Source: a virus
Taxonomy: Duplodnaviria > Caudoviricetes
DNA length: 61,106 nt
Virus record (IMG/VR): IMGVR_UViG_3300021335_000016
Location: 1 to 61,106 of that record
Reading direction: 5' to 3' (one strand)
Shown here piece after piece: positions 2,910 through 40,137 of this stretch. The notes below the pieces were generated by a model that ran no database searches, was not told the DNA's origin, and was given only the letters and a program-made list of their open reading frames with translations. The translations under genes were made by a program, and so were the position numbers. Within the stretch, counting starts at the first letter, position 1, and every line of letters begins with the position of its first letter.

Positions 2910-4739
2910 TTAGAATGACAGACCAACTACTTCTTCAAAGTCCACGCCAGTTCTAACTGCTACAAAGTTCAGTGTAATGTAGTTGATAGAACGTGCTGGT
3001 TTAATGAAGATAGTAGCAATGAATTCATTGCGATCAATAATTTCAGGTGTGTTGTTTGTTTCGTCACAAACTACTCTGAAGTCAGTGATACCACGACGAC
3101 CCTTTACTTCTCTCAGGAAAGGTTCTACAATGTTTACAAATTCTGCTCTGGTAAATTCATCGTTGAATTCAAACAGTACAGAACGTGCTGCACGGGAGAT
3201 TGCTCTTTCAAGAGTAAGGAAAAGTCTGCGAACGTTAATTCTGTCAAATGCAGAAGGACGACGCAACATTGTTTTATCACCAAACAGTGTAATACCACCA
3301 CCTGGAATATTTGCGATTGGGTTTACATTTGCTCTGTAGAGTCTGTCACGTTCTGCCTTTACAGGAGACTGAGCAATATCTACAACACCAAAATACTGAC
3401 CCCTTCTCAGACCAGCAGGCGAGAACCAAGGAGCAGTATTGAAGTCAGTTTGTGCCATCAGACCAGCAGTAGAAGATGCAGCTGGAATGTAAATGTATTC
3501 GTCATTATACTTGTCAAATACTTTTAACCAGTTGTTATCAAGGAAGATATACGAACTGGATGGAAGTCTGTCTGCAAACTCAATAGTGTCAGTTACAGGA
3601 GATGTTGTATTAATTACAGCATGCTTTGGTGGAGATGCTACTACAATACAATCTTTACGGGTAAGAGAAGCAATAGAGTGCAAGTCAGTAATGATTGTAT
3701 CTGCTGCGACATCTTGTGCTGCATCAGTTCCAGAAGTAACTGCTGGAGCAATCAGGAAGTCTACCTGATATGCGTCTACATCTTCAACCAAATCAAATGC
3801 ATTTGCATATGCAGAAGCGCCCAGAGATTGAGCATTAGCACCATTTGCAAGTCTGATAGTCTTCACTACTTGCTTATCAGTAGCAAGAGCAAAGTCTGTA
3901 CTTTCATCTGCATCTGTGCCAGCACCTGCTACTCTGTAGTCAGAGTCAATGTTAGCAGCATCAGCAAGCCAAATGTAAGACGATTGATTATTAATTACGT
4001 CTGCAATGTAGTTTGTAGAACCATCTGCATTCTTTGCATTAGATGCAAGAGAGACAAATGGGAATGTTTCAAGAACAGTACCTTTAGTTCCTGTAAACTC
4101 ACCACCTCTATCAACTACAGCTACATGAATTTCATCATTGGTAGCAGTTTTACCTGTTGCAAAAGCAGAAGTTCCTGGTGCAGAGTTAAATTCATTCTTC
4201 AATCCCCAACCATCATAGGCAGAATCTGCGCCTGTGTCAAATGGACAGAGTTGAATTTCAAGAGAGTTGCCCAAAGTCCCTGGATACTTTGCCAAGAAAC
4301 CGTGGAAACCAGATGAAGAATCATCCAGAACAGTACCTCTTCTATTATCAAAGTCATCTTCATTAAGAATAGCAGGTTGATTAGAATCTCTGCTTTGACC
4401 ATCAACACCGTTATTAGCAAAACTAGAAACAGTGTCAACATGGTAAGCATTAAGTGCAGTAGAAGTTCCACTGTCTAAAGCACGAATTACTAAAAGTTGA
4501 TCGGAATATCTTGAGAAATAAGCAGCAGAATGAAAATCTACCGCATTGTTTGTGTCAGGTGAAGCAAATTTTTCTACAAGGTCTGCTTCATTATACACAT
4601 ATGTTGGTACATCAACTGGACCCCAGCGAAAGTTACCTGCAAACACACCCGTCGATGTGCTAACGTTAGGAACGTATCCTGTGAGGTCAATCTCACGGGT
4701 TACTACAGCTGGAGACAGTGAAGGCGTGAAAAAAGCCAT
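2910..4739 (-). CDS. gp18: Tail sheath protein
   Basis: Motifs SPAVVTREIDLT, FRWGP, WFSPAGLRRG, FDRINVRRLF, FIKPARSINYITLNFVAVRTG. Confidence 0.98.
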   Translation of the reverse strand: MAFFTPSLSPAVVTREIDLTGYVPNVSTSTGVFAGNFRWGPVDVPTYVYNEADLVEKFASPDTNNAVDFHSAAYFSRYSDQLLVIRALDSGTSTALNAYHVDTVSSFANNGVDGQSRDSNQPAILNEDDFDNRRGTVLDDSSSGFHGFLAKYPGTLGNSLEIQLCPFDTGADSAYDGWGLKNEFNSAPGTSAFATGKTATNDEIHVAVVDRGGEFTGTKGTVLETFPFVSLASNAKNADGSTNYIADVINNQSSYIWLADAANIDSDYRVAGAGTDADESTDFALATDKQVVKTIRLANGANAQSLGASAYANAFDLVEDVDAYQVDFLIAPAVTSGTDAAQDVAADTIITDLHSIASLTRKDCIVVASPPKHAVINTTSPVTDTIEFADRLPSSSYIFLDNNWLKVFDKYNDEYIYIPAASSTAGLMAQTDFNTAPWFSPAGLRRGQYFGVVDIAQSPVKAERDRLYRANVNPIANIPGGGITLFGDKTMLRRPSAFDRINVRRLFLTLERAISRAARSVLFEFNDEFTRAEFVNIVEPFLREVKGRRGITDFRVVCDETNNTPEIIDRNEFIATIFIKPARSINYITLNFVAVRTGVDFEEVVGLSF

Positions 4740-4811
4740 TTTCGGTCTTCCTTTTTTTCGTTTGAATTAATAATAAGTTACCCATGATAAGTCAGTTTCA
4801 AAACACGATAA

Positions 4812-4819
4812 TATTTATA
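4812..4819 (-). promoter_or_regulatory. T4 late promoter TATAAATA for gp18-gp19
   Basis: Exact match within the palindromic tatttataaata (4812-4823). Confidence 0.8.
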
Positions 4820-4830
4820 AATATCTGATT

Positions 4831-6417: not shown

Positions 6418-6661
6418 TTTTTATAAATCTTTTTGCTAGTTTATGGAGTGTATAGAACCAAATCCCGTTAATGATGGGTTCTACAATTGCATCAATAGCC
6501 GCTAACTCCATAGCTGCACCGGTAATTAACCAGTTGCAGATTGTGGCAATAAAGATATGCCCAATAGTATAAATGATTGCTAATGCAATACTAGACTCGC
6601 CAATGAGTCTTTTAAGGAGTTTGAATATCCCCTTTGTCAATTCCGTCATAATCATGGTCAA
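6410..6661 (-). CDS. Small two-helix membrane protein, DUF2061-like
   Basis: IYTIGHIFIA...AIVEPIINGIWFYTLHK resembles DUF2061. Overlaps both gp16 and gp17. True start may be the later Met (MTELTK). Confidence 0.6.
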   Translation of the reverse strand: MTMIMTELTKGIFKLLKRLIGESSIALAIIYTIGHIFIATICNWLITGAAMELAAIDAIVEPIINGIWFYTLHKLAKRFIKNE

Positions 6662-7025
6662 TCACCTTCTCTCCATCTCCACGCAGCATTTTCTGTAATT
6701 CTGCTGTGGAACCTACAAATACATTCTGTGTAAGAGACTTTTGTTCCTCTGGCGCACCTTTGGCCTGAGTTACATTAATCTCTTGATTCTTTTTATGCAT
6801 TGCCAATAAAGCATGTGCATTTTCTGATTGTTGCTTAATCATACCAGTCAAGACTTCAATAGCCCGAGGATGTTCCATTTCTTCTGCAACATCTTTGGCA
6901 AGCCTAAGACCCTCTTCACCTTGAAGTAAAAGAGTGCGTAAAGTAGACCGAACAAGGTCTAGGTCTTCATCATAACTAGAATGAACACCTTCAGGAATAT
7001 CTTTTTTTGGCACTATATTGTTCAT
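6612..7025 (-). CDS. gp16: Terminase small subunit
   Basis: Motifs EHPRAIEVL and VFVGSTAELQKML; synteny. Confidence 0.92.
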   Translation of the reverse strand: MNNIVPKKDIPEGVHSSYDEDLDLVRSTLRTLLLQGEEGLRLAKDVAEEMEHPRAIEVLTGMIKQQSENAHALLAMHKKNQEINVTQAKGAPEEQKSLTQNVFVGSTAELQKMLRGDGEKVIDHDYDGIDKGDIQTP

Positions 7026-7828: not shown

Positions 7829-7829
7829 A

Positions 7830-8729: not shown

Positions 8730-8733
8730 TACA

Positions 8734-9486: not shown

Positions 9487-9534
9487 GCTTATTCCTTAGA
9501 TAACTATATTTATTATATATTTATCAATATTATT

Positions 9535-10452: not shown

Positions 10453-10470
10453 TATATTATATTATCCTTA

Positions 10471-12767: not shown

Positions 12768-14084
12768 TCATCTAAAAGGTTTCGGTCCATGAACCCAAAT
12801 AACCAACGCCCAGCGTTCTCCAGACTCAATAGGAGTTACACAGTGCGGCATATAACTTGGGAACATAGAAAGTGAACCTTGATCACGAATCGCTTTTATT
12901 TGTCTATGATGATCTTGTACTAAAAGATCACACCCTTTGTAATCATTAGAGTCTGACAACTGCACAGTAAACGAAATCTTACGAGTTGCAGAATATCCGG
13001 GCCCAGCATCTACATGCCAATCATAATGACCTGGAATCTTTTCATCAGAACGATAATGAATCAATTGCAACCCATGAGTGATAGTATTTACATCATAATG
13101 AAAATGGTCTCTATTTGCTAAATGCACTGCATTACATACTTTTTGAAATAACCAACTCGTATTTTCATTTGGATTTAACTCATAAACATCTGCTGATCTA
13201 GTTTTCCTGTCTAAAGTTTGCACACCAATTTTAGCTGATGATGGATACAAATTTTCTGCAAATGCAATAATCTTATCACACTCTTCTTTAGTAAAGACAA
13301 TCTCTGGTGCATTTTTTTGATTGTAACCGATATAACCGGCAAATTGCTTATCGTCTTGTGACTTTGGTAAGAGAACGGCTCCAAACATTGGATCATCAAT
13401 TTCATATTGATTATGAACATTTTCTTTCTTTGGGAGATTAATATTCCCATAGTCCGGGTCTACAGCATCATCCCGTAAGTTGCTATCACTTTTATTCTTA
13501 CCAAACTCTTTGCGACCATCCATAGCATGATCTTTATGAGGACCATTCGCATCTACATAATGCAAGAATACTTGTGCTTGCCACTTACCTTTAAACTTTG
13601 TTCTCCAGTGTTCAACTTCACAACCTTTATACATTGCAAGTTCACCAGCCTTAAGGTCAACTGGAATTTCCTTATGCTCATCAAAATAGATTGGCCAGAC
13701 TGGTGTGCTTTCATCATACCCCAAAGTAAGAGTAGCAGAAATTTCACAAGAAGGTCTATCTTTATGTCTTGTTAAAACTTCTCCTGGCTTATACAGTCTG
13801 GCATAACTGTAGGTAGGTAAGAGTTTTTTACCTACATGTTCACCTAGACCTTCTGCCATTTGAACTAAGAGGTCATCAAATACAGGGTCACCATAGATAG
13901 CACCAGAAAGGTCACACTGACCATCTGCTTTAAGTTTACCTTCTTTCTCAAGGTTAAACAAATGCTGAGTGAGTTGTTCACACTGGTTTTCATTTAAAAC
14001 ATCTGATAGAACAACATAACCATTTTCTTCAAATGCTTGTTTTGTCTTTTTATGATGTTCTTTAAGTTCACTCTCAGAAAACAT
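12768..14084 (-). CDS. Tandem two-domain 2OG-Fe(II) oxygenase (prolyl-hydroxylase-like)
   Basis: Domain 1: YARLY..GEVLTRHKDRPSCEIS...EHWR...QVFLHY. Domain 2: YDWHVD..RKISFTVQLS...FPSYMPHCVTP..SGERWALV. Both HxD...H triads are intact. Confidence 0.9.
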   Translation of the reverse strand: MFSESELKEHHKKTKQAFEENGYVVLSDVLNENQCEQLTQHLFNLEKEGKLKADGQCDLSGAIYGDPVFDDLLVQMAEGLGEHVGKKLLPTYSYARLYKPGEVLTRHKDRPSCEISATLTLGYDESTPVWPIYFDEHKEIPVDLKAGELAMYKGCEVEHWRTKFKGKWQAQVFLHYVDANGPHKDHAMDGRKEFGKNKSDSNLRDDAVDPDYGNINLPKKENVHNQYEIDDPMFGAVLLPKSQDDKQFAGYIGYNQKNAPEIVFTKEECDKIIAFAENLYPSSAKIGVQTLDRKTRSADVYELNPNENTSWLFQKVCNAVHLANRDHFHYDVNTITHGLQLIHYRSDEKIPGHYDWHVDAGPGYSATRKISFTVQLSDSNDYKGCDLLVQDHHRQIKAIRDQGSLSMFPSYMPHCVTPIESGERWALVIWVHGPKPFR

Positions 14085-14128: not shown

Positions 14129-15436
14129 TTATTTAGTTTCTAATTCTTCAACTTTTTTCTTCAAAGTCTCTACAGTTTCAGTCAGTTCTTGAATAGCCTT
14201 AGTAAGAACAGGAATAACAGTTTCAGGTTTCAACATCATTGTATTTATTTCATCATCTTCAGTATATACTGACTGAGGAATTACTTCTGAAATCTCTTGT
14301 GCAATAAAACCCAATTGTTGCCCCTCATGGTATTTACTTATAGGGTCTTTAAAGTCAAAACTTACAGGATTAAGTTGATTGACAAGAGAAATAGCATCAC
14401 TCTGAATAGACTCAATATTTTCTTTCAGTCTCTCATCAGAAGGAATACCACTATAGATGATAGGTCCACCATGAACTTCTTCACCCGGATTATTTGGGTA
14501 AGGATAAGTCGTAATGACTGTATCTTGTGGAGCCTGAACAAGAACATCAATCGTATTTGCATCTAATGCATAGTAAAGTGGTTGGAACACAGTAGGAGCA
14601 GAGTCTGGATCGTTTGTTGCAGTTCCAGCAGTAGAGGACAAGAAATAATAATTGTTTGCAGACAATCCACCTGATACTGTAAAAATACCAGTAGAAGCAA
14701 TCTTTACATCAGTAGCCGTTTTATCAACGATAATGTGAGTTGCAGTAAATTCACCACTTGAATCGTTATATGCACCTTCCCATTTACTTGAAGTTGTATC
14801 GTAATAGATTGCCTTACCTTCACCATTGGTAAGCACACCTGTTCCAAAAAGACTAGAATCTACAGAGAAGTTCGGGCTTGTTAATGCAGTCAAGTCAGCA
14901 GCAGTTGCAACAGAAATGCCATTAACCTGTAAAGTGCCACTAGATGGATTGAAAGTTAATTTAGAACTAGATACCTTTACTCCATCATATCCAGTAGTTG
15001 CATCTCCAAAATGAACATAGTGAGTAGAGTTGGTTGAAGTATCATTAGTAATATCAACATTATCAGCATTAGTAGCAGTACCATTAACAATTGCAATATC
15101 AGCAGAGTCTGCTCTCAAAGTGCCATCTACATAAACATTAAATCCACGAGAACTATCTGTACCAATTGATACATTTCCTGCAAACTCTGCAAGACGAATT
15201 TCACCATCATCATCTACTTCAATAGATGGGATACCTGAAATATCATTTACAGAAAAGATTGTGCCAGAAAATGTATCTGTAAGAGAGAATAACTGACCAG
15301 CATCACCACTAAAAGATAGTGTGTCTGTTCCCAGCATTTCTACAGTGATTTCATTTAAAGATTCGTTGGAATCCTTGAATGAAACATTTGGTGTTTGTAG
15401 TCCATTTTTGACTATAAACCTTTTATCGTTCGCCAT
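14129..15436 (-). CDS. Tail fibre protein with C-terminal intramolecular chaperone (peptidase S74)
   Basis: SDERLKENI...LNPVSFDF...GFIAQE...LTKAIQEL plus coiled coil; N-terminal FIVKNGL and FSVNDISGIPSIEV. Confidence 0.85.
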   Translation of the reverse strand: MANDKRFIVKNGLQTPNVSFKDSNESLNEITVEMLGTDTLSFSGDAGQLFSLTDTFSGTIFSVNDISGIPSIEVDDDGEIRLAEFAGNVSIGTDSSRGFNVYVDGTLRADSADIAIVNGTATNADNVDITNDTSTNSTHYVHFGDATTGYDGVKVSSSKLTFNPSSGTLQVNGISVATAADLTALTSPNFSVDSSLFGTGVLTNGEGKAIYYDTTSSKWEGAYNDSSGEFTATHIIVDKTATDVKIASTGIFTVSGGLSANNYYFLSSTAGTATNDPDSAPTVFQPLYYALDANTIDVLVQAPQDTVITTYPYPNNPGEEVHGGPIIYSGIPSDERLKENIESIQSDAISLVNQLNPVSFDFKDPISKYHEGQQLGFIAQEISEVIPQSVYTEDDEINTMMLKPETVIPVLTKAIQELTETVETLKKKVEELETK

Positions 15437-16664: not shown

Positions 16665-16713
16665 TAGATTCCAAACCTTCCTCTAGTAGCATTAAAGTTT
16701 TGTTTGATTTCTG
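15478..16713. repeat. 43-bp identical direct repeat (15478-15520 and 16671-16713) at the 3' ends of both LamG genes
   Basis: ccaaaccttcctctagtagcattaaagttttgtttgatttctg occurs at both positions, 1193 bp apart. Confidence 0.92.
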
Positions 16714-28113: not shown

Positions 28114-29316
28114 TCAAAAAGTTCCACCGTCAATCGTATCAATGCTAACTAGTCCTGTTACAGTTACATCAAAATTATTGCTATCAAACTGTGCTACACC
28201 AACACTATCAACTGATGCAATAGGGACTTCAAAGTCAATAGTTCCATCTGCATCCTGATATGTTACAGTTATATTTGTCTCAGTATTTCCTGAGACCATA
28301 GCTCCAACAATATCTTGTACAGCTTCATCTTTTAGACTTGCTTGACCACCACTAAAGTCAAAATCATTACTATCTAAAAAGTCAGATAGTGCGCTATCAC
28401 TAAATGTGATGGAACTGATTACAGCAGAATCAATCGTTAAATTTGTTATATCTGCATTGGCAAGAGTGGTTTGTCCAGTAACTGTTAAATCTACAATTGT
28501 AGCAGAATCGGTAACATTCAAAGTTACCAAATCAGTATTGCCTGTTACATTAAGATCAGCAATTGTTGCTGAATCTGTAACAATTAAATTAGTAATATTT
28601 ACTTGTGTAGAAACTACATTATCAATATAAGCAGAATCTACATCAATTGCTCGATTAAAGTCCCAACGGTCTGTAGTGCCATTGTAAGTAATACTAGGTG
28701 AGGCTGCACCAAATACTGCATTGGCAGTATCAGAGAAAACAATAATACCAGCACCATCAAACTCAATAGGTGCTGTTCCTGCACTATCACCTAAGATTAA
28801 TGCAAGGTCATTGATAGTTACTTCAGTAGAGTTTACAGTAGTAGTTGTTCCATCTACCCTCAGATTACCTTTAATAATTACCGTACCAGAGTCATTAGTT
28901 GGATACGGGTTAATGATTAAAGTCTCTTCACCTGAAATTGTTCTGATTTCATTAGATTCAAATTCAAGATTGCCAATAGAAATGATTCCAGTGGCAGGAT
29001 TAAAAACAAGATTACCAGAACTTGTAGAAATTACATTACTGTCTAAAGTTAATACATCAACCTTTAATTGGTCTACTTTGCTATTAGCATCTGTAATAAT
29101 TGCAGAAGATGGAGTAAGAGTACCAGGAGTGTGATCTAGGAAATTGGTAAAATATTCACCACCGATTACTAGAATATTAGAGGAATCACCTATGAATAAT
29201 CGTTGACCGTCGTTATTAACAGTTCCATTACCGAAAGCATATGCAAGTTCACCTCTAGATAAACTTGATGGTTTTCCGTCACTGTCTGAACGTTTTATAA
29301 GAATAATGGCAGACAT
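28114..29316 (-). CDS. Short fibre-like virion protein (400 aa)
   Basis: N-terminal ILIKRS...PSSLSRGELAY; GNLRVDGTTTTVNST; EAVQDIVGAMVSGNTETNITVTYQD; ends IDGGTF. Confidence 0.75.
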   Translation of the reverse strand: MSAIILIKRSDSDGKPSSLSRGELAYAFGNGTVNNDGQRLFIGDSSNILVIGGEYFTNFLDHTPGTLTPSSAIITDANSKVDQLKVDVLTLDSNVISTSSGNLVFNPATGIISIGNLEFESNEIRTISGEETLIINPYPTNDSGTVIIKGNLRVDGTTTTVNSTEVTINDLALILGDSAGTAPIEFDGAGIIVFSDTANAVFGAASPSITYNGTTDRWDFNRAIDVDSAYIDNVVSTQVNITNLIVTDSATIADLNVTGNTDLVTLNVTDSATIVDLTVTGQTTLANADITNLTIDSAVISSITFSDSALSDFLDSNDFDFSGGQASLKDEAVQDIVGAMVSGNTETNITVTYQDADGTIDFEVPIASVDSVGVAQFDSNNFDVTVTGLVSIDTIDGGTF

Positions 29317-30270: not shown

Positions 30271-33200
30271 TTATGTTCCTAGTGCAATTGCTCTCAAGTC
30301 TTTAATTCTAGGCACCCTAGAAGAGTTTTGAGACCTAAACACAATCTTCAATTGGAAAGTAGAGAATGGTGTCAATGTCCCTTCTGTACCACCAATAGTG
30401 TATTCATATTGCCTAAAGATACTTCTATTATCATCGGTCTGAATACTGGTATCTTCTGTCGCCAGAATAAACTTAACAGTCTCAATATCCGTATCAGAAC
30501 CTGCTGGTAATGTTCTGTAGTAAAGGTCAATAAACGAATTTGTAGGTCTATTTGCTCCAAGCAGGACTTTCAAGCCAACAGCAGGTTCAGCGAGATTGAT
30601 AGGAATAGTGATATGTTTAGACAAGGAAGAACCAGAGTTTGCTGCACTGTCTGCTACAAAATCAATAGGATTGTTAAATGTAACATTAGGTTCAGCAGCA
30701 AGGTCAGAATCAGCAGTCTGATTATCAATCAAGTTACTAACAGAAGAAACAGATAACGTTTGCAAGTCAATCACAGGAGAAATGTAAGTATCACTAGTAG
30801 AAAGTGCAGAAGTAAATTTAGCAGATGTTCTAGTAATCGAAGGTTCAGCTGCTTCAATTCTAGCAGATGCAATAACTCTTGGTGATTCAAATCTAGTCAA
30901 CTCATATGGTGTAATACTAACTGGATCTAGTGATCCATATGCAGCATTGGTAAGGTTATTGGCAGTAACCAAAGAAACACCACTTGTAAGTTCAGCTGTT
31001 GTGCTAAGGGTAGTAGTATTAGCAGGTAAGAAAGAGTTTAAGTTCAGAAGAATTTCATCCATCAGAACGTTTCTTTCTGTTTCTACAGAAGCCCCTCCTA
31101 CCAAAGAAGTTTCTGTTGCAGCAGAATCTACAGTGATTTGGAATGACTTACCATCTACTTTCTTAACAGTTTGTACACCCATGATTGTACTACCTAAGAT
31201 ACCACCATATCTTGTAGCAGAGTCTAACCCAGAGATTAGAACTGGATCATTCTTTACAAAACCAGAGTTTGGTAGCAAAATAACAATATCATTGTCACCA
31301 CTATCTGTGGAAATTGGATTGATTCCAGGATTGACAGTTGGAACTGCTCTATTCTCAAATATAGCTGTACCACTTGAGGTAAAGTCTGCTCTATTAACTC
31401 TAAACATCATATCTCTAAACTGATCTGGTGTCCACGTAATAGCATTTTGAGACATAAAGAACGAACCAAGAGAAGGTTGCTTTCTGACTCTTTGTGAAGT
31501 ATCATTAATAATGTATTCGCCAATTTTAGAAACATAAACATTATAGTTTTGTGTATTAGCAATCAAAACAAGGGCATACTCAGTGTTGCCCTGTAAGTAA
31601 ACAGGAGCATCGAATTCAAACTTTGTAGGATTGTTGCGAATCTCAGCAATAGTTGTATCATTTTTTAAAGGTGTAACCGAAACTTCAATAGGTGTCAAAG
31701 TCTTTACTGCGCCAGGAACTATGGTATTTTGTGAAGGAACACCACTTTCTACAGGTCTAATTTCTAGTGTGATAGGAGTATTATCTTCTGGATCATTTTC
31801 TCCAAGTGAATTTATTGAATTTGGAGTAGTCGCAAAGAATACTTCAATACTTGTGATAAATCCACCATTAGCATTTTGAATTTGGAAAGACTGTGCAATT
31901 GGTTCTTTAGGAACTACGAAAGTTTGTGTTGATTCTGTAGTGGTTGATGAAGAAAATGTTAAATTAATAACAGAAGCATCAATACCAAGAGCAGAATAGT
32001 TTGCAGACGCAGAAGAACTAGACGCAGTTTCATTGTAATTTGCAGCTGTCTGATCAATATCCATGATCGCAACTCTTCTGTCACCTACATCAAATTTCAA
32101 TGCGTCATTATTTGGAATAAAGAATGACCCTTCAATCTCACCAAAATCACCAGTGACAAGTGTAGTTGAAGATTGCGGGTGTGAAGTTGCTTCAAGATAT
32201 TGACCATCAGTAAAGTCATTTAAATCAGCACTATCTGAGAATCTAAAGAAGTCTTCTTCTCTTACAAAGTCTTTAATTGGTGTTCTATCAAAGTATAAGA
32301 AGTGTTCTCTGTTTGGGGCAAGTCCTTCTGCCCTAAAGAATACCTTTCTAGAACGAATAAACGGAAGAAGTGATAAATCAACAACAATTGATCCAAAAAT
32401 ACCTCTAACTGTTCTAGTTGTCGTTACTCTTCTAACTCTAATTGCGTTACCGCCTGTGGTTATTGATGGAATAAAGTCAACTTGTTCACCAACTGTCCGA
32501 CTTGAACTTGAAGTGGTAAAGTTAAAGTCATTAATAACATCACCGACACCAATAGTGAGGTTTTCAGCACCCAAGTCAGCCGCAGTGATGAATTCACTAG
32601 GTCTAATAAGACTTTCAATTAATCGTCTTCTTGCCGCCTCATCATTACGGAATGATGCTCTATTTGCTCGCTGAGAACCTACAACTGTCAATTCTCTCCA
32701 CTCATCTCTTTGTGGAGAAAGTGTCAAAGTTCCATTGTAAAGAATAATATCAAATGGGTTTACGTTTTCAGTTTCAGTAGCTACATTTTGGTCAATTTCA
32801 TTTACTTCTGAATAATTCAAGAAAAGTAAATCACCTTTTTGAATTGTATCGGTACTAATAGCACTATCATATCCAAGACGCACGTTATTCTGTGCACCAA
32901 GTGGCATAATAGTATTCTCATCAATATCTAATCCAGCAGAATATTGCTCAGAGAAAATATCAGAGAATATAAAGTCTTTGAAGTTATCAGCAAAGAAACC
33001 ATTCTTAAATCTGTTATTACCATTTGCATCTAATACTTCAAGCGTAGATGTTTCAAGTTCTAACAGGTTAAGTGAAACAACTTCTTCTAAATTATTAATT
33101 CTATCAACAATACCACCAATATCTTCCATAGTGTATCTGCGATTATTAACAATTGTAGCATTTAAATCTGATACATCATCAGTGTATGGATTCAAGGTGA

Positions 33201-35517
33201 AGTTTGCCAACTCCATTGCATTAGATGAAACATCAGGTTTCTTTGGGTTTGAACCTGGAGTTCCTTCAATGTAGTTTAATGCACCCTCAGATGTTGCAAC
33301 CAAAACATCTTTTCTAGACTGGTAATAACTAATATCTGCTGAGATAATATCAGTATTAGATGGGAGTTCATGAACATAAGCCTCACCATTACTAAAAGTA
33401 CCACTAGCATCCTTCTTGCTTCTAAAGTCAAGAACATTTCTTAGTTCAACTTCTGCACCATTGCGCAATCTATAAGTTGGAATATCTTCATAGTCAACAG
33501 CATTTGGGTATGAGTTCACAGAAAAGAAGTTTCCTGTTGCACCATGCTCAAAGTGCTTATAGTGTACTGTTGTAGAAGTTGGAATAGACTGCCCACTTCT
33601 AAGAATTACCCTACCTCTATCATAGAAGTTGTCTCTTTGACCATTATCTGTAATAAATCTACTAGAAATACTATTACCAGATGCATCAGCAATAGAGTCA
33701 AAACTATAAATGTCATAGTCCTGTAAGGTAAAGAATCTAAGTCCAGAACCATCACTTTCAACATCAGTAGTATTGTTAAAAGTTTGAGTAAGTGTGGCAG
33801 ATAAAGTTTTTTGTCTTTCACCCGTCCCTGATAAACTTACTGAAACATATCCCAAAATTTGGTAAGGTTCATCTGTCGGTAGTCCAGTATATGCAACTTC
33901 TGAACCCGTTGGAGTTCCAGTTAATGTTGGAGTTGTGGATATAATATTACCATCACTTACTTTTGCAATAATCCAACCTGTAACATTCGTACCAGTACCG
34001 TTTTCTAGGTCTGAAGCATTCAGAGTTATATTGCCACCACTAGCAGTTTTTGTAAAATTTTTCTGCACAGTGAGAGAATTTACAGTTACACCAGTACCCT
34101 TTTCAGGTCTAATTCTAGGTAATGCAAAAAATACGTTATTGTTATTTGCTTCTTTGATTACAGCAATATTGTTTTCTAATACTAGATTAGCATAGTTATC
34201 GGAGTCTAACCCAATACTAACTGTATTTCTGAAGTTATTGGAACCAGTCATTTGAACATCAAAAATATGGTATCTATAGTTAGCACCATCTTCTAAAACA
34301 TTTCTAATACTAGCTGTTCCTAAAATCTTAGAGTCATGGATAGCTTCTCCAGAATCACTATAAAGATTCCACCGTTCAAGTTCACTAACATTTGGTAGAC
34401 CTTTAATGTCATTTGATATAATATAATGCCCATAGTTAGCAACAATATTTTCATTTTCTAATGGAACAGTAGTAGTCTTTGATCTATTAACATCAATGAG
34501 AGTATTTTGTGGTCTAGAAACTCTATAACCATTTACATATGCAGTACCAGAAGAAACATCTAATGTAAATTTGTCTGCATCTTTTGCTTTAAACTTAGGG
34601 ACAAAACTTTTTACAGTATAGTTTCCAGACTCTTCAAAGGTGCGAGTTGCTAATTCTTTACCAATCACACTATAGGTATTTTCATCAATTTCTCTTTGAA
34701 CAACACCATTAATCAATCTATTGGTAATAATAAAGTTTGTATCAGAGTCAATAATAGATTCACTTTGAGCAGCTAGTGTGAGAGTAATTCTATATCTGTC
34801 AGCACCCGGTGCAGTTTCGTTAGGAAGAACGTTTTGATTGTCATAAAGTGCGTTAGTATCATCTACAGTGACAATATCCTCTGTAATCAGAAATCCAACA
34901 TTAGTGGTAGGATCATTTTCATATTTTGAAATGATTTTGCTTTGTGCCTGTGTCTGCACAAAAAGACCACGGATAAAATATGCACCATCATTAACAGCGA
35001 TTTTAAATCCCTTGCCAGTTACAGCTGGATCATTTCCAATGGAGGGTTTGAGAGACACTGGGTTAGTTCCACCACTACTACTTGTATTTGTTAATGTATC
35101 TCCAATTGAAAAGGTAACAGGATCTGCGCCGGAGGTAGCATTTCCCTGATCAATATAGTCAACATAGACAGTTGCAGGATCAGAACCAGTTTTTGCAATA
35201 AAGTCAATTACTCTTGCTCTAATTCCATCACCATTTTCTAAGATATCCCCAACATAAAGTGTTGGAGTACCTTGAAGTCTTACATATTGAATTTCATTGT
35301 CAGTGACTAAGCCACCCGGAATTACAACAGAGCCTTCTCTGAAGATATTTCTACCAAAGCGTTCCATCTGCTTTTGAATGATGGTCTGCATTTGGGTGAG
35401 TTCTCTCGCCTGCAGCGCTCTACCAGAGTTAAATAGAATTCGCTGATAATTATCACCTTCACTAAAATCGTCCTTATAGGTGGACGAAAAAGTATTTTCA
35501 TTTTTTGTTACTGCCAT
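30271..35517 (-). CDS. Large baseplate-associated structural protein (VrlC/DUF4815-like, 1748 aa)
   Basis: YKDDF....YQRILF.SGRALQARELTQMQT, APGADRY, LATRTFEESGNY, DNGQRDNFYD, RRYTMEDIG, RFKNGFFADNF, PIAQSF, VPRIKDLRAIAL. Confidence 0.88.
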   Translation of the reverse strand: MAVTKNENTFSSTYKDDFSEGDNYQRILFNSGRALQARELTQMQTIIQKQMERFGRNIFREGSVVIPGGLVTDNEIQYVRLQGTPTLYVGDILENGDGIRARVIDFIAKTGSDPATVYVDYIDQGNATSGADPVTFSIGDTLTNTSSSGGTNPVSLKPSIGNDPAVTGKGFKIAVNDGAYFIRGLFVQTQAQSKIISKYENDPTTNVGFLITEDIVTVDDTNALYDNQNVLPNETAPGADRYRITLTLAAQSESIIDSDTNFIITNRLINGVVQREIDENTYSVIGKELATRTFEESGNYTVKSFVPKFKAKDADKFTLDVSSGTAYVNGYRVSRPQNTLIDVNRSKTTTVPLENENIVANYGHYIISNDIKGLPNVSELERWNLYSDSGEAIHDSKILGTASIRNVLEDGANYRYHIFDVQMTGSNNFRNTVSIGLDSDNYANLVLENNIAVIKEANNNNVFFALPRIRPEKGTGVTVNSLTVQKNFTKTASGGNITLNASDLENGTGTNVTGWIIAKVSDGNIISTTPTLTGTPTGSEVAYTGLPTDEPYQILGYVSVSLSGTGERQKTLSATLTQTFNNTTDVESDGSGLRFFTLQDYDIYSFDSIADASGNSISSRFITDNGQRDNFYDRGRVILRSGQSIPTSTTVHYKHFEHGATGNFFSVNSYPNAVDYEDIPTYRLRNGAEVELRNVLDFRSKKDASGTFSNGEAYVHELPSNTDIISADISYYQSRKDVLVATSEGALNYIEGTPGSNPKKPDVSSNAMELANFTLNPYTDDVSDLNATIVNNRRYTMEDIGGIVDRINNLEEVVSLNLLELETSTLEVLDANGNNRFKNGFFADNFKDFIFSDIFSEQYSAGLDIDENTIMPLGAQNNVRLGYDSAISTDTIQKGDLLFLNYSEVNEIDQNVATETENVNPFDIILYNGTLTLSPQRDEWRELTVVGSQRANRASFRNDEAARRRLIESLIRPSEFITAADLGAENLTIGVGDVINDFNFTTSSSSRTVGEQVDFIPSITTGGNAIRVRRVTTTRTVRGIFGSIVVDLSLLPFIRSRKVFFRAEGLAPNREHFLYFDRTPIKDFVREEDFFRFSDSADLNDFTDGQYLEATSHPQSSTTLVTGDFGEIEGSFFIPNNDALKFDVGDRRVAIMDIDQTAANYNETASSSSASANYSALGIDASVINLTFSSSTTTESTQTFVVPKEPIAQSFQIQNANGGFITSIEVFFATTPNSINSLGENDPEDNTPITLEIRPVESGVPSQNTIVPGAVKTLTPIEVSVTPLKNDTTIAEIRNNPTKFEFDAPVYLQGNTEYALVLIANTQNYNVYVSKIGEYIINDTSQRVRKQPSLGSFFMSQNAITWTPDQFRDMMFRVNRADFTSSGTAIFENRAVPTVNPGINPISTDSGDNDIVILLPNSGFVKNDPVLISGLDSATRYGGILGSTIMGVQTVKKVDGKSFQITVDSAATETSLVGGASVETERNVLMDEILLNLNSFLPANTTTLSTTAELTSGVSLVTANNLTNAAYGSLDPVSITPYELTRFESPRVIASARIEAAEPSITRTSAKFTSALSTSDTYISPVIDLQTLSVSSVSNLIDNQTADSDLAAEPNVTFNNPIDFVADSAANSGSSLSKHITIPINLAEPAVGLKVLLGANRPTNSFIDLYYRTLPAGSDTDIETVKFILATEDTSIQTDDNRSIFRQYEYTIGGTEGTLTPFSTFQLKIVFRSQNSSRVPRIKDLRAIALGT

Positions 35518-35533
35518 TTCTATCTAACCTTTA

Positions 35534-36940
35534 TTAAAACTGAATGGTAATTTTAATGTCTTCTGTTCCTGCTGTGGTTCTTTCAACAGCAGCTCTACTC
35601 TCTACATATAATAAGTCTCCAGAAAATGGATCAACTTCACCATCAGAATCTGAAACAATTGTTCCATTATTATCAGGGGCTGCTGAGTCTAGTAAAAGTT
35701 GCCCTTCGACAGTAAACGGCACAAATCCTGTATTCTCATTTTGGTGATATAAGAATGTGGCATCTGTACCTGCAACTATTGTAGTATTTTTATCTACATA
35801 TGCTCTTGCTTTTGGTTCAGTACCACCTTGAGAAATTATACGATCTACTGCAATATCATCAAGATTCGCGCCGCGATCAACTGTAAGAATTCTTAATGCA
35901 CTTCCTGTAGTTGCAGTAAAATCAGAATCTGCTGCTGACCGACTAGTGGGAATTTTTGGATTTTTCAAAATACCAACTTGTCTGAAGTCTGCACCTGTAC
36001 CTGTCAGGAAGTCTCCAGAACCTGCATCTCCTACAAGTTTAGAGTTGAACATAATAGAAGTTGATTTTAAATCATCTCTAGGGTCAGCACCAATACCACC
36101 TTTTGAGATGATAGGTTTTACTACAAGACCAGATCCACCACCACCACCGCTTGATGTAACAGATGCATGATCGTATCCAGCACCAAATGGGAAACCTCCA
36201 GCAGAATCATCAACATTAACTGCGATAACGGACCCACCTACAACTGTAGCCACTGCTCTTGCATTACTACCATTACCATTTACTGTGATAGTTGGTGCAG
36301 ATGTGTATCCAGTACCATTACTAGTTACACGATATCCAACAATCTGTCCAGCTGATGCTGCATCTTGGACATCCTTTTGAGACTGTCTAATGTTACTCAG
36401 TCCAGATGTTTCTGTAACCTTCTCAACAGGAATAAAGTTTGAGGTAGCAAATGCACTCAGTCTTGTAGCAGATTGCGTAAACAAGAACTTCCAAACATAT
36501 CCATCAGAAGTTTTTACAGGTGAAGTAGTTGTCCCTGTGGTATCTGGGTTTACAGTAGAAGTATTTGTATCACCAGTCAGAGCGTTCTTACCCTGTCTGA
36601 GACAAATATAGACACGGTTAGATTCAGTGATTACATAATACTGACCATTCTGTGCAGAAGTTTGATTATCTCTATAAGGTTGATAGATTGTGCCAGACGA
36701 CCAATTGTATCTCTTAGCAACAAAACTTACAGAAGCAATTTTTTGAATAGACTGTAGATTATCTCTAAAGTCTCTCTTGGTTGTTTCAATATCAGTAATA
36801 GATGTTGGAGCAGTGTCTGTCTCATTCCATGCATCAGACTTACCAATACCCAAATAGTAATTATTAGAGTCTGCTTGCAAATCTTCTATTAATTTTTCTA
36901 CTACTAATTGCTTAGTGTCTGTAGTTACTATTGCTACCAT
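35534..36940 (-). CDS. gp8: Baseplate wedge subunit
   Basis: YYLGIGKSDAW, RYNWSSGTIY, YYVIT...VYICL, DGYVWKFLF, FRQVGILKNP, SGDLLYVE.R...EDIKITIQF. Confidence 0.88.
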   Translation of the reverse strand: MVAIVTTDTKQLVVEKLIEDLQADSNNYYLGIGKSDAWNETDTAPTSITDIETTKRDFRDNLQSIQKIASVSFVAKRYNWSSGTIYQPYRDNQTSAQNGQYYVITESNRVYICLRQGKNALTGDTNTSTVNPDTTGTTTSPVKTSDGYVWKFLFTQSATRLSAFATSNFIPVEKVTETSGLSNIRQSQKDVQDAASAGQIVGYRVTSNGTGYTSAPTITVNGNGSNARAVATVVGGSVIAVNVDDSAGGFPFGAGYDHASVTSSGGGGGSGLVVKPIISKGGIGADPRDDLKSTSIMFNSKLVGDAGSGDFLTGTGADFRQVGILKNPKIPTSRSAADSDFTATTGSALRILTVDRGANLDDIAVDRIISQGGTEPKARAYVDKNTTIVAGTDATFLYHQNENTGFVPFTVEGQLLLDSAAPDNNGTIVSDSDGEVDPFSGDLLYVESRAAVERTTAGTEDIKITIQF

Positions 36941-36953
36941 TTCTTATCTCTTC

Positions 36954-37406
36954 TTATGTAATTACTACGTCGGTATCAGCTGAATCTTTATGACCAATCA
37001 GATACCAGTATGAACCCGCCCACACTGCTTGTGTAGAACCATATTGACTTAGTGCGAAGTTTGTTCCATTACCAAAATTTGTTGGAGTGATTGTTGCTAC
37101 AGCGGAGTTGATATTCAAAAAGATTTTATATTCACCAGTTGATGTACCATCACTAAGAGTTGCAGCAATTGTGCCAGACCCTTTATTAAAAACAATAAGT
37201 GTATCAGAATCATTTACTGTTGCACTTGCTGTGTTAATAGTTTGAGTAGCATAGGCAGCATTAATACCATTAGACGCAATACTGTTGCCCCCAAGAGTCG
37301 AATATAACTCGTTAAAGTTATCGTTGATCTTCTCTCCACCAGACCTCAGTGTGTCACCAGTGCCATCATTGGCATTTGTTCCAATATCTAAAGTTTGTTT
37401 TGCCAT
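36954..37406 (-). CDS. Baseplate wedge / tail-fibre connector, gp9/gp10-like (short)
   Basis: T4 gp9/gp10 N-terminal motif MAKQ.L.IG..ANDGTGDTLR.GG.KIN.NF.ELY. Confidence 0.8.
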   Translation of the reverse strand: MAKQTLDIGTNANDGTGDTLRSGGEKINDNFNELYSTLGGNSIASNGINAAYATQTINTASATVNDSDTLIVFNKGSGTIAATLSDGTSTGEYKIFLNINSAVATITPTNFGNGTNFALSQYGSTQAVWAGSYWYLIGHKDSADTDVVIT

Positions 37407-37438
37407 TTTACCTACTTACACATTGAATTGTTTAGTTA

Positions 37439-37446
37439 TATTTATA
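37439..37446 (-). promoter_or_regulatory. T4 late promoter TATAAATA
   Basis: Exact match 33 nt upstream of the start at 37406. Confidence 0.75.
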
Positions 37447-37454
37447 TGCATTAT

Positions 37455-39029
37455 TTAAGTTGAAGGTAATCCTGTCAACTGCGATATACGGTTAGACCTA
37501 TTCCTGAAAACTTCTACAGCAAAGTTAGCATTATTACCACCTGTCAAAGACCAATTACTATGGGGAGTGCCAGTCATAACATCGTAACTGCTATTGGCAT
37601 TGTTGTGGGTAAATGAAAATACAAGGGGTCTAGCCTTGTAAGTTTTATTGTAAAGTTGTTGGTTATCATAGTTGTAACCGGAACTATTAACCGTTCCAGT
37701 AGAAGTTGAAACTGTGGTTCCAAAAGCAGTTGTCGTGCCACCAATATACTGTGATATATTTTTACCTCTTACCGTAGCAGTAAAAATAAAATCATTATCT
37801 GCTACCCTTGCCACATTATTTGGAATTCCTTGATCTTCACAAGCAAAAATATAATCACGGAATACTGTTGGACCACTACTCCTTACTGCCAAGGTGGCTA
37901 CAACTTTTACATAATAAATGTCATCTAAAGGTGCTGTTCCTATTTGAAATAAATCTCTAATTTCTGTTACTCCAGCAGTGCAACTAAATCCTATTGTATT
38001 TTCTACAATAGTATCCCAAGTTGCATTGGAAGCAAAACCACTTGCCTGAGCATCGTTCCTCATGTTATTATTATCCAAGATTAAAGTGCCATCTGTAACA
38101 GCAGCATATGCAGCAAATACTCTTTCATACCCACCAACATTATTATTTGTAACCTGTAAATTCCCTACAATTTCCATTCCACTATCTGTAGAACGCATTT
38201 TTACAGAATTATTATGTTTGACAATTACTGGTGTATTTAATTGAGTAGTTGCAATGACACCTTGACCATTACCTGTGGGATCAAAATACATTTCAAAATC
38301 ATCGCCAGTCCCTAGTTTAATCTTAGAGTTGTCTGGCATATCAACGTGACCATTAACATTAGCATTACCAGGAATAGTAGCACCACCTGTTGCAACTACA
38401 TTACCCGTTACACTAACACCTGTACTAGTTGTGGCAACTTTAGCATTGCCGTTATAATATAAAGTAACTGCATTGTCTGGTTGAGCAGTAATCATTGTTT
38501 CAGTACCGTTTGCATTAAACACATTTAGTTGATTAGCTCGAATGTCTAAATTTGCACTACCAGTTTCTGAAATTACACTATTTCCACCGGAAGTGTGGTA
38601 AATCTGAAATTCAGCATTATCACCCATTTGAAGTCTAGCACCATCAGATAAATTTACATTAGTAGAAAATGACGCACTATCAGCAAAAGTTGTTGGACCT
38701 GCTACATTTAATGTTCCGGAAATTCCGGAAGTTGTCAATGTTCCTGAAGTTGTCAATGTCCCTGAAATTGTAGTATTACCATCAGAATCAATCTTAACAT
38801 TATTTGTTCCAACAAACTTGGAACCATTATAACGCAAAACAGAATTGTTTTCTTTTACACCAGCAGGCCAGACTGCCCATGATGTATTGAACATAGCACT
38901 ATCAACATTCTCAAACTGATTGTTAATTTTAAGACCAGCGCTTCTTAGAGTATCACCTGTGTTGTCGTTAGCAACCGTGCCTCTATTAAGAACGTTATCT
39001 GAGTCTAATACATCTAGTGTGCTTGCCAT
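37455..39029 (-). CDS. gp9/gp10-like anchor fused to a fibre shaft and an unknown C-terminal domain
   Basis: GTVANDNTGDTLRSAGLKIN motif; FQIYH and LYYNG...TTSTGV modules shared with the long fibre. Confidence 0.72.
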   Translation of the reverse strand: MASTLDVLDSDNVLNRGTVANDNTGDTLRSAGLKINNQFENVDSAMFNTSWAVWPAGVKENNSVLRYNGSKFVGTNNVKIDSDGNTTISGTLTTSGTLTTSGISGTLNVAGPTTFADSASFSTNVNLSDGARLQMGDNAEFQIYHTSGGNSVISETGSANLDIRANQLNVFNANGTETMITAQPDNAVTLYYNGNAKVATTSTGVSVTGNVVATGGATIPGNANVNGHVDMPDNSKIKLGTGDDFEMYFDPTGNGQGVIATTQLNTPVIVKHNNSVKMRSTDSGMEIVGNLQVTNNNVGGYERVFAAYAAVTDGTLILDNNNMRNDAQASGFASNATWDTIVENTIGFSCTAGVTEIRDLFQIGTAPLDDIYYVKVVATLAVRSSGPTVFRDYIFACEDQGIPNNVARVADNDFIFTATVRGKNISQYIGGTTTAFGTTVSTSTGTVNSSGYNYDNQQLYNKTYKARPLVFSFTHNNANSSYDVMTGTPHSNWSLTGGNNANFAVEVFRNRSNRISQLTGLPST

Positions 39030-39058
39030 TTTTTATTTCCTATGAAAACCCGTAAATT

Positions 39059-39066
39059 TATTTATA
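39059..39066 (-). promoter_or_regulatory. T4 late promoter TATAAATA
   Basis: Exact match 30 nt upstream of the start at 39029. Confidence 0.75.
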
Positions 39067-40137
39067 TCAAACATATGGACCAATTGCCGAATCTAAACCA
39101 GAATCATTGTAGAATGGGAAGATGGCTTCATCCATAGTTTCGGTTGTGCTAGAGAATCTAATGCCCGGAATAAATCCAATAGTATCAAATGTACCACTAT
39201 CTTCATCCATTGTAATACCAGAAGAGTCAGACATATTGTATGCAATTTCAGCAGAATTATCACTATCACTGAATCTTCTAGAGTTAGGATCAAGAAGGTC
39301 TGCAATAGAGATATACTGACCATTGTAAAGAGAATTGTTGAGGATATCAGAATCTTCTGCATCAGTCTGGTAAATGTCAAATCCACGACTAACAGCAAAT
39401 CTTCTCTGTGCATCACTATCAATTGCAGTGACAGACGTAAGACTTGTAAATTCAGTTTCACCATCAGAAACAATAATAGATGCAGCAGAAGCAGCAATAT
39501 CAGAGTCTGTAATAATTTCAGTAAGTGGTCTTCCAAACATACTTACAACTGGTTCAAAGGCTGTCTCAGTGAAGATAGCATAACCAGCTGGATGTAGATA
39601 TGTCTTATAATAATCAAACCATTCTGTTGCAGGAATAGAACTTTTAATAAGAATAGAAAAGATTTGATAAAAATAAGAATCTTGAATGAACTTTAGTGAT
39701 TCGGCACCAATTCTACTCTGTCCAACAATAAACATATCATTTCTAGGTAATATTTTTTCAACATCTTGCTGGAAGAAATATCTAAAATATGAATCAATAG
39801 AAACGTTTGTGCCTTTGATCTTATAAAGACTTGGTAACTGTTTAAGTGCAAATCTAGGAGATGGAAATTTGGATACACCAAAACTTGGTGACTTTTCCTG
39901 AAACAGTAAATTTAAAAATTCTTCAGAAGTAGACTCTGGGTCTCTAGCAGTAAAGATATTCTTTAAGTCATGGGCAATACCATCTTCACCATCAATATAC
40001 TCGTAGTATGCTTTCAGAAACTCTACTAACTTAGGATATTGTTCTTTAAAATGTTCAGGGACAATCGTATCAACCTGAGATTCTTTCAAGTCAACATTTA
40101 ATCTATTTAAGTCAGAGAGAGTTTTAATATTAGACAT
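39067..40137 (-). CDS. gp7: Baseplate wedge initiator, compact gp7-like protein
   Basis: P.HF.EQYP.LVEFLKAYYEY, LY..KGT..S, IQDSYFYQIFS, HPAG; follows gp6. Confidence 0.75.
   Translation of the reverse strand: MSNIKTLSDLNRLNVDLKESQVDTIVPEHFKEQYPKLVEFLKAYYEYIDGEDGIAHDLKNIFTARDPESTSEEFLNLLFQEKSPSFGVSKFPSPRFALKQLPSLYKIKGTNVSIDSYFRYFFQQDVEKILPRNDMFIVGQSRIGAESLKFIQDSYFYQIFSILIKSSIPATEWFDYYKTYLHPAGYAIFTETAFEPVVSMFGRPLTEIITDSDIAASAASIIVSDGETEFTSLTSVTAIDSDAQRRFAVSRGFDIYQTDAEDSDILNNSLYNGQYISIADLLDPNSRRFSDSDNSAEIAYNMSDSSGITMDEDSGTFDTIGFIPGIRFSSTTETMDEAIFPFYNDSGLDSAIGPYV

Follow-up and report, generated by a model that had tools for sequence, protein, structure and literature searches.

An Asp-Ser-[Ala/Asp] motif concentrated in outer virion proteins and scarce in inner ones across a marine T4-like phage lineage

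The virus record IMGVR_UViG_3300021335_000016, whose entire 61,106-base sequence was analysed here and is called the window, contains a T4-like myoviral structural module, encoded for the most part on the minus strand. The outward-facing virion proteins encoded in it are rich in the dipeptide Asp-Ser (DS), above all where DS is followed by Ala or Asp (DS[AD]), and the inner and non-structural proteins are poor in it. Indeed, the window holds 74 DS[AD] tripeptides against about 18 expected, of which peripheral virion proteins account for 73 and the core set for a single one, in line with the original prediction for this DNA that DS is concentrated in outward virion proteins and scarce elsewhere; the split into peripheral and core open reading frames (ORFs) follows annotation, but was drawn after the site lists had been seen. 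This partition recurs in distant relatives of the phage and, as far as our literature searches show, an outer/inner split of one dipeptide has not been described: no paper was found on the DS motif or on the shaft repeat presented below, in searches that left aside supplementary files, including the tables of cyanophage virion proteomics. We tentatively favour the view that hydrophobic-D-S-[A/D] is a lineage-specific structural turn or corner motif of exposed, largely trimeric fibrous virion proteins, kept by protein-level selection.

Expected counts of DS were taken from 2000 composition-preserving shuffles of each of 50 ORFs. The tripeptide signal is directional, since DSA occurs 40 times versus 8.5 expected (4.7-fold) and DSD 34 times versus 9.4 (3.6-fold), while the reversed ASD occurs 6 times versus 8.5 (0.7-fold) and the SD order is likewise not enriched. 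The excess is found both in the four proteins that are individually enriched in DS (34 DS[AD] versus 6.0) and in 17 other peripheral virion proteins (39 versus 6.8, z = 12.6), while the 29 core or non-structural ORFs hold 1 versus 5.0, together with a general deficit of DS (23 versus 37.9, 0.61-fold, z = -2.5). In the four enriched proteins the residue following DS is preferentially Ala (3.4-fold) or Asp (1.9-fold) and rarely Val (0.5-fold); in the other 46 proteins it is Asp (3.5-fold) or Ala (3.4-fold), with Leu at 0.8-fold and Thr at 0.4-fold. Around DSA and DSD, hydrophobic residues are enriched at positions -4 to -1, +4 and +7. The sites often fall outside conserved Pfam domains, in lineage-specific extensions of gp14, gp15, gp18 and the wedge tail, and the tetrapeptide DSDG recurs in six proteins, as read from the site lists.

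Whole-protein shuffles single out four of the 50 ORFs as significantly enriched in DS. These are the repetitive 2057-aa long fibre (19075..25248, minus strand; 38 DS versus 18.4 expected, z = 5.0, with 14 SD and only 8 DT versus 25), in which the final DS stands at residue 1721; the 400-aa fibre (28114..29316, minus strand; 13 versus 4.4 expected from its 42 Asp and 42 Ser, z = 4.6); an 818-aa tailspike-like protein with a weak pectate-lyase-like match (25579..28035, minus strand; 14 versus 7.4, z = 2.7); and the 356-aa baseplate wedge protein of family PF23786, named gp7 in the original prediction (39067..40137, minus strand; 10 versus 3.8, z = 3.5), with 8 of its DS within the C-terminal 150 aa. 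The excess extends to the wedge family (2.4-fold over 82 proteins) and to spike homologues at 57–70% identity (2.0-fold), with distant spike homologues at 0.84-fold. No abundant dipeptide is more enriched than DS in any of the four proteins, and in three of them no dipeptide is more depleted than DT (13 versus 37.8 expected over the four). The remaining 46 ORFs pooled hold 85 DS versus about 86 expected.

The hand counts of the original prediction proved exact wherever they were checked (fibres, spike, wedge, gp15, gp18 and the LamG protein). The five DS that it had pointed out in each of gp18 and gp15 are there, but the sheath protein gp18 (2910..4739, minus strand) is not enriched (5 versus 4.1) and gp15 (7022-7828, minus strand) is enriched at nominal significance only (5 versus 1.7, p = 0.02 uncorrected). 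All the DS of gp18 precede residue 266 of 609 and lie N-terminal to the conserved sheath domains (316-593), two of them being DS[AD]. Similarly, gp15 carries two DSD and one DSA at its C-terminus, all C-terminal to its Pfam domain (residues 5-217), with the exception of a DSS at residue 204 inside the domain, and the gp14 neck protein (7830-8729, minus strand) carries two DSD, C-terminal to its Pfam domain (10-174), which places five of the six sites listed for the two proteins beyond the domains. The DS counts of gp14 and gp15 are maintained in relatives L010-L014 and L016.

The signal resides in the protein and not in the DNA, because the Ser codons at DS resemble the bulk and GANTC is not unusual. 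Indeed, the AGY share is 34% at DS sites versus 30% over the window, the 400-aa gene uses seven AGY and six TCN codons for the Ser of its DS, and GANTC, which arises from D-S(TCN), occurs 218 times versus 205 expected. A DNA-level cause is thereby rejected, and the earlier assertion that selection acts on protein is sustained, as both Ser codon classes serve at DS. The same holds across relatives, where TCN and AGY are both used for the Ser of conserved DS columns.

Comparison with orthologues indicates that the motif is retained beyond general similarity. The retention of DS[AD] is 93% versus 58% for identical tripeptides at 75-90% orthologue identity, 73% versus 41% at 60-75%, and 32% versus 14% at 40-60%; this last band also has 28 new DS[AD] elsewhere in the alignments, versus about 13 by a rough hand estimate from composition. 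Over 80 IMG/VR loci surrounding wedge homologues, DS[AD] is enriched 3-6-fold in every identity band, down to 29%. When families were sorted in the 73 loci with wedge identity of at most 50%, where orthologues are 29-50% identical, all four outer families were enriched, with observed/expected ratios for DS and DS[AD], respectively, of 2.50 and 9.2 in the wedge (73 orthologues), 2.31 and 6.0 in the gp8-like (55 orthologues), 2.70 and 8.8 in the gp9/10-like (45 orthologues) and 1.17 and 4.9 in the DUF4815 family (55 orthologues). Conversely, eight of the nine inner families were depleted in DS (0.07-0.52-fold): gp6 (0.40 and 0.11), gp25 (0.19 and 0.47), gp5-like (0.27 and 0.33), amidase (0.21 and 0), gp48-like (0.07 and 0), gp5 N-terminal (0.49 and 0.18), gp27-like (0.47 and 0.73) and gp53-like (0.52 and 1.79), the ninth being an unknown 300-aa family (1.04 and 0).

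Ranking of all dipeptides with at least 60 expected occurrences in the same 73 divergent relatives places DS at both extremes. In the inner set (300 sequences) it is the most depleted of 310 dipeptides (248 versus 618 expected), with DT (1.06), NS (0.97), DA (0.92) and DG (1.14) ordinary; in the outer set, only one of 304 dipeptides is more enriched than DS (1385 versus 739), with DT at 0.75-fold. The size of the DS deficit alone is not unique, because deficits of comparable size are seen for other dipeptides in the outer set (GP 0.39, RG 0.43, DK 0.47). What stands out is that a dipeptide named beforehand is extreme in both lists and in opposite directions, with the reservation that sequences inside one family are not independent. 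A 121-kb relative with a wedge identity of 32%, G001, displays the same trend in a single genome: DS is at 1.80-fold (z = 8.6) and DS[AD] at 5.3-fold (z = 16.9) in its outer block, DS[AD] is at 3.7-fold in its neck, tail and head proteins, and DS falls to 0.69-fold (z = -2.6) in 86 other ORFs; its inner baseplate, at 0.80-fold, is not significant by itself. Two further features of this genome are a series of 13 ORFs in succession (249-552 aa), mostly DS-rich, at about 49.7-66.9 kb (L184-L185), which resembles a tandem array of fibre-like paralogues, and a 193-aa Asp/Ser-rich ORF right after the portal gene (76482-77063), with 7 DS versus 2.1 expected and 5 DS[AD] versus 0.3.

Outside this group the trait is mostly lacking. 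No excess of DS or DS[AD] is seen in the fibres, baseplate and neck of T4, nor one of DS in S-RIM12 and S-SZBM1 or in the fibre regions of Mosig and P-HM1 (Mosig has 3 versus 3.4 and 4 versus 7.8 expected). Among 69 loci of typical cyanomyoviruses, gp6 has DS at 1.11-fold and the giant gp7-like proteins at 0.98-fold, with DS[AD] at 0.99-fold. Phage C48C1, the one isolate found for this lineage, shows the trait in part, having one enriched protein, with DSD at about 2.4-fold and DSA at about 1-fold. The idea of a general property of T4-like fibres and baseplates is therefore rejected, and the comparison with orthologues, which the original prediction had called for, shows an enrichment that T4, typical cyanomyoviruses, Mosig and P-HM1 do not share; this makes it a trait of one broad lineage of marine T4-like phages, for the most part uncultured. 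A more distant relative, L015, has DS at 0.38-fold in a paralogue block. This 21-kb locus of a 201-kb IMG/VR contig comprises at least eight tandem paralogues of the C-terminal part of the 746-aa protein described below, flanking a 52%-identical copy of the oxygenase also described below, and holds 17 DS versus 44.3 expected and no DSD versus 3.5.

In the fibres, the origin of the DS excess can be followed closely. The original prediction had spoken of unrelated surface proteins, which does not apply to the 2057-, 400-, 524- and 435-aa fibres, as BLAST finds repeat modules common to them; the other outer proteins are not linked by BLAST. Masking of the BLAST-detectable later copies at three thresholds leaves 581-930 of the 2057 residues of the long fibre, with 14-22 DS versus 5.4-9.3 expected (z = 3.9-4.7); the excess thus survives the collapse of repeats at the BLAST level, at which a long-repeat artefact is rejected, this masking leaving short repeats of 5-22 residues in place. 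Databases contain more than 2000 relatives of the 400-aa fibre, and the 120 listed ones hold 1321 DS versus 603.5 expected and 447 DT versus 869. At the extreme, relatives carry 33 DS in about 600 residues as A-x-(I/L/V/F)-D-S units, often directly adjoining, as in the stretch ...A-H-I-N-F-A-D-I-D-S-A-F-I-D-S-A-R-I... of P0032. Successive DS in the 120 homologues are spaced by 5 residues (50 cases versus 5.5 in shuffles) or 10 (101 versus 4.2), with further peaks at 15-16 and 20-21, and spacings of 3, 4, 6 and 7 are depleted to near absence. The family alignment shows blocks of units inserted or deleted between relatives, so that repeat number varies, together with invariant or near-invariant DS at D142-S143, D307-S308 and D315-S316. 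The shaft of the 400-aa fibre itself (about 225-300) consists of units of about 22 residues such as L-x-V-T-D-S-A-T-I-x-D-L-x-V-T-G.

Comparison with solved structures and modelling suggest how these units may fold. Sequence searches of the PDB gave no relative for the 400-aa fibre, the 2057-aa fibre (which also lacks a Pfam family) or the fibre-family profile, and the ESM Atlas returned only unnamed viral clusters, all below 0.9. Among solved structures, P0032 is best matched by the short tail fibre of SU10 (chain 7z4b_EA, E = 4e-4), the matched part of which is itself an AlphaFold model according to passages of the SU10 paper (PMC9509320). P0032 also weakly matches the pentapeptide-repeat proteins Np275/276 (E = 0.016-0.17) and designed relatives (up to 0.6), and these alignments place D-S at both turn residues of the A-x-L-x-x unit. 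The monomer AlphaFold (AF2) model of the 400-aa fibre is of low confidence (pLDDT 65), with no regular structure at 221-306. By contrast with its controls, a trimer model of residues 215-400 reached an ipSAE of 0.82 versus 0.00 for the best of three, with at least 94% contact agreement between runs and a partner pLDDT of at least 86; the ipSAE mark is reached by 20 of 30 proteins solved as one-chain pairs and, of 23 proteins known as single chains, by one, a calibration that is only approximate for a custom alignment and three copies. In this model, all residues from 215 to about 295-300 contact other chains, and the best contacts are offset by 5-6 residues from chain to chain (251-256-262-267-273-278). 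We read the shaft as a predicted intertwined trimeric beta-helix with D-S at its corners.

This arrangement can be set beside two known folds. The pentapeptide-repeat proteins (A(D/N)LXX; Np275/Np276, PDB 2J8K/2J8I; PF00805) share the five-residue period, the small residue at i-2 and I/L/V/F at i, but here D-S stands at i+1/i+2 and i-1 is variable; they are single-chain, right-handed, four-sided beta-helices, while here the monomer model is unstructured in this region and the confident three-copy model is intertwined. The Pfam pentapeptide model matches neither P0032, P0027 and P0016 (at E up to 10) nor the fibres of the window. The other fold is that of the trimeric phage shafts (SU10 gp16, 7Z4B; the T4 gp37 needle; T4 gp12; the gp5C triple beta-helices), which resemble the modelled homotrimer with its contact stagger of one unit and its variable number of short repeats, SU10 7z4b_EA being the best solved relative. 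In T4 gp37 and gp12, Fe or Zn is held on the axis by HxH motifs; the fibres here have no such metal motifs, and the T4 fibres and baseplate, for their part, lack the DS and DS[AD] excess.

The DS excess in the fibres is, with good support, structural, and the two strongest DS cases are explained without modification because DS is one position of a five-residue fibre repeat. In the mechanism that we tentatively favour overall, the fibre part is the better established: DS is the corner dipeptide of A-x-(I/L/V/F)-D-S, with small and hydrophobic residues two apart; strings of such units form the modelled intertwined trimeric beta-helical shaft, and variation of the copy number among relatives multiplies DS. 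In the wedge, gp8-like, gp9/10-like, DUF4815, neck and sheath-surface proteins, the tripeptide would act singly between hydrophobic stretches, an isolated DS[AD] being most likely an Asx-turn combined with an ST-turn, or a helix N-cap. A role as turn or cap would account for the disfavour of Thr and for the lack of enrichment of the reversed orders (ASD, SD). At isolated sites, a turn or cap may be favoured by the hydrophobic neighbours, the directional bias, the disfavour of Thr and the conservation of positions, although there is evidence in either direction. Should the structural reading prove right, A-x-hydrophobic-D-S would be an undescribed five-residue shaft repeat present in more than 2000 marine-phage database proteins and outside every Pfam model, which would be useful for annotating and modelling the fibres of uncultured phages.

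Several observations weigh against such a structural role for all sites. A generic turn motif would be expected also in the fibres and baseplates of T4 and of typical cyanomyoviruses, where it is not seen. Avoidance of DS is left unexplained, be it the first rank among the depleted dipeptides of the inner set, where DT, NS, DA and DG are normal, or the deficit in the 86 other ORFs of G001. Furthermore, the non-fibre outer families do not show the five-residue period, and their DS are scattered over about 50 alignment columns per family, of which only 1-4 are conserved in half of the sequences. This scatter looks like selection for DS density, a pattern that misalignment could mimic. Finally, the wedge monomer model has a pLDDT of 52 overall and below 50 across the DS-rich tail (residues 195-356), which gave no usable model, and the wedge protein has only chance-level matches among PDB sequences.

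Several of these observations lend some weight to an alternative, which we nonetheless consider unlikely, in which DS is the recognition tag of a covalent modification: an enzyme of the host, or of the phage and encoded outside the contig, would modify the Ser (by O-glycosylation or phosphorylation) or the Asp of hydrophobic-D-S-[A/D], and the spared proteins would avoid DS. An outer/inner split of one dipeptide that is lineage-wide and not found in neighbours is the signature expected of a recognition motif. The opposite biases at the head of both rankings within one lineage, the deficits in the core ORFs of the window and in G001, the occurrence of the motif in families unlinked by BLAST and often in extensions beyond the conserved domains, the turnover of sites with density maintained and Ser retained across codon classes, and the restriction to one lineage, as expected of a one-enzyme trait, all point this way. 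In its fullest form, which we hold to be improbable, a large uncultured lineage would use the motif as a sequon, an enzyme would coat the fibres, outer baseplate, neck and sheath surface, inner and cytoplasmic proteins would have been purged of DS, and each shaft corner would display one site; if confirmed, no earlier case of virion modification directed by a sequon would exist among T4-like phages. Against this stand the periodic and structural nature of the fibre motif, the positional conservation of many sites, in the manner of structural residues, and the outcome of the search for an enzyme.

Indeed, Pfam and PHROGs scans of the window, which is part of a genome, found no glycosyltransferase, kinase or Asp/Asn hydroxylase among the ORFs scanned, as the original prediction had stated for glycosyltransferases; six ORFs were covered by PHROGs only (42038-42484, 43406-44995, 44996-45685, 46831-47376, 47381-48712 and 48712-50589), and three small ones (6410-6661, 60489-60746 and 60797-61054) lay outside the enzyme scans. 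The proposal that DS-rich genomes share such an enzyme did not hold up either, since no candidate family is common to five related records (the complete C48C1 and four IMG/VR fragments): GT2 is found in one of five, GT1 in none, 2OG-FeII_Oxy_3 in two, and Asp_Arg_Hydrox (PF05118) in none, the latter a weak result as the control search detected it nowhere. Absence across the five is weak evidence, because four of them are 28-65% complete. C48C1 (L006/L181), in which GT1 and GT2 gave no match, carries nucleotide-sugar genes, namely an epimerase, a UDP-glucose dehydrogenase, a cytidylyltransferase and a Nol-like carbamoyltransferase (35326-37226, 63514-64857, 95704-97221). In G001, the fibre block is broken at 38.3-43.2 kb (L183-L184) by six ORFs of 184-297 aa that are poor in DS; one is QueC/PP-loop-like, one methyltransferase-like and three without a Pfam family, while 39574-40272 crosses the L183/L184 cut and lay outside the scan. 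The QueC-like and methyltransferase-like genes more likely serve DNA modification.

The sole enzyme-like gene of the fibre cluster, not mentioned in the original prediction, encodes a 438-aa tandem 2OG-Fe(II) oxygenase (12768..14084, minus strand), PhyH-like at residues 17-192, a half labelled ferrochelatase in phage records, and 2OG-FeII_Oxy_3 at 263-435, with HxD...H residues in both halves as read by eye. It occupies the same position in seven of seven related loci, beside homologues of the 746-aa and 305-aa proteins, and in Mosig, S-MbCM6 and HTVC023P its two halves are encoded by neighbouring but distinct genes. The literature interprets such genes as metabolic or repair functions. A link between this oxygenase and DS is unsupported: it belongs to a variable enzyme island between fibres and neck that is also present in Mosig, L015 has the 52%-identical copy but is poor in DS, and C48C1 lacks PF13640. 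The suggestion of Asp hydroxylation fares no better, as Mosig, with two Asp_Arg_Hydrox genes beside its fibres, and P-HM1, whose two Asp/Asn hydroxylase genes are not beside the fibres according to passages of Sullivan et al. 2010 (PMC3037559), both lack a DS excess, in addition to the weak negative in the five related records. The Mosig island (L017, 1-19132) spans about 18 kb directly upstream of the tail fibre genes, which are not DS-rich, and encodes, besides the two Asp_Arg_Hydrox proteins, a TauD-like dioxygenase, aminotransferases, a carbamoyltransferase, radical-SAM-like proteins, methyl- and acetyltransferases and an epimerase.

Nor does the motif correspond to a known modification system. 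The general O-glycosylation sequon of Bacteroidetes is D-(S/T)-(A/I/L/V/M/T) and acts on exported proteins, while the virions of tailed phages assemble in the cytoplasm. DSA fits this sequon, in which Asp precedes the hydroxyl residue, but the parallel drawn in the original prediction fails, because the sequon takes Ser and Thr whereas DT is depleted here (8 versus 25 in the long fibre, 0.75-fold in the outer families), Asp is as common as Ala at the third place, and Val, Leu and Thr are not enriched there. We know of no sequon that DS[AD] matches. The nearest precedent for a self-coated virion would be found in mycobacteriophages, whose virion glycosylation was reportedly described by Freeman et al. 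in 2023, with phage glycosyltransferase genes said to accompany the structural genes; here, no glycosyltransferase was found in the scanned window and none is common to the relatives. Taken as a whole, the idea of a tag placed across the virion retains a motif that is concentrated outside, selected at the protein level and lineage-specific, and loses the independence of the fibres, whose DS is structural, as well as the links to the Bacteroidetes sequon and to a hydroxylase.

We regard as quite unlikely a second alternative, in which the motif binds cations directly, the carboxylates of D-S-D and D-S-A (three per trimer layer) or Asx loops taking up Ca2+ or Mg2+ from seawater and so stiffening exposed proteins after release, by analogy with the HxH motifs of T4. 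The enrichment of DSD and the recurrence of DSDG are consistent with it, as is the confinement of the motif to parts exposed to the medium, and passages on the nearest solved relative, the SU10 short fibre, describe His pairs proposed to bind Fe2+, like those of T4 gp37 (PMC9509320). However, DSA, with one carboxylate, is enriched as much as DSD, the pentapeptide register would put D and S at the turns and not on the axis, other marine T4-like phages live in the same seawater without the motif, and the avoidance of DS in inner proteins is unexplained. Very unlikely, finally, is the absence of any function of its own, the motif reflecting descent, the shuffling of short fibre modules and the dipeptide habits of families, with an ancestral inner deficit: the shared modules and varying repeat number of the fibres, the similar depletion of GP, RG and DK, the non-independence of sequences within families and the strong habits of control families (DS at 0.50 in cyanomyovirus gp25 and 0.08 in a 190-aa family) are in keeping with it, but both biases persist in orthologues only 29-50% identical, eight of nine inner and four of four outer families conform, new DS[AD] arise at about twice the rough hand expectation, and direction is strong (DSA versus ASD).

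The other peripheral proteins of the window carry the tripeptide in smaller numbers, all on the minus strand. DS[AD] occurs four times in the 468-aa gp8-like wedge protein (35534..36940), twice in a 150-aa protein with a gp9/gp10 N-terminal domain (36954..37406), four times in the 524-aa fibre-like protein that has modules in common with the long fibre (37455..39029) and eight times in the 1748-aa DUF4815 structural protein (30271..35517), in which DS as such is at expectation (12 versus 11.4). The 435-aa fibre with a C-terminal S74 chaperone domain (14129..15436) has 6 DS versus 3.6 and two DSA, and at 57512..59319 a 460-aa protein without an assigned family holds three DSD and one DSA, and a 141-aa S74-chaperone protein one DSA. 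The contrast set, comprising gp6, gp25, gp5-like, amidase, gp27-like, gp53-like and gp48-like proteins (40140..51416, minus strand), has few DS and a single DS[AD], a DSA at residue 55 of the 443-aa gp27-like protein (47381-48712). The 746-aa protein (10471-12711), which we take to be the propeller protein of the original prediction, has 6 DS, all before residue 250 as read by eye. The 801-aa LamG protein (16664-19069, minus strand) has a single DS and shows a reverse bias, with 12 SD (4.8 expected for each order), as does the 529-aa gp5-like protein (43406-44995, minus strand), with 9 SD and no DS (3.2 expected).

Pfam and PHROGs identify the portal, tube, sheath, terminase, gp15, gp14 and gp13 in the window, which also contains a long block of genes of fibre type, gp6 and the genes for the gp8-like, gp9/10-like and wedge proteins, and likewise the inner baseplate and hub genes, gp2, a gp3-like gene, gp26 and gp32. 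No DNA-level match to the window was found in the phage collection. By portal protein, the nearest isolate is phage C48C1 of the Kyanoviridae (61% identity), typical cyanomyoviruses being at about 53%, and tblastn yields only six cultured relatives of the wedge protein. According to one source, the wedge homologue P0163 (45% identity) stems from a metagenome-assembled genome of the Balneolaceae, which may be a hint, albeit a very weak one, at the host of the lineage. At the position of the T4 head-completion gene, adjoining gp2, a 145-aa ORF (51466-51903, plus strand) matches the N-terminal domain of TnsA-like endonucleases (PF08722, E = 6.6e-18).

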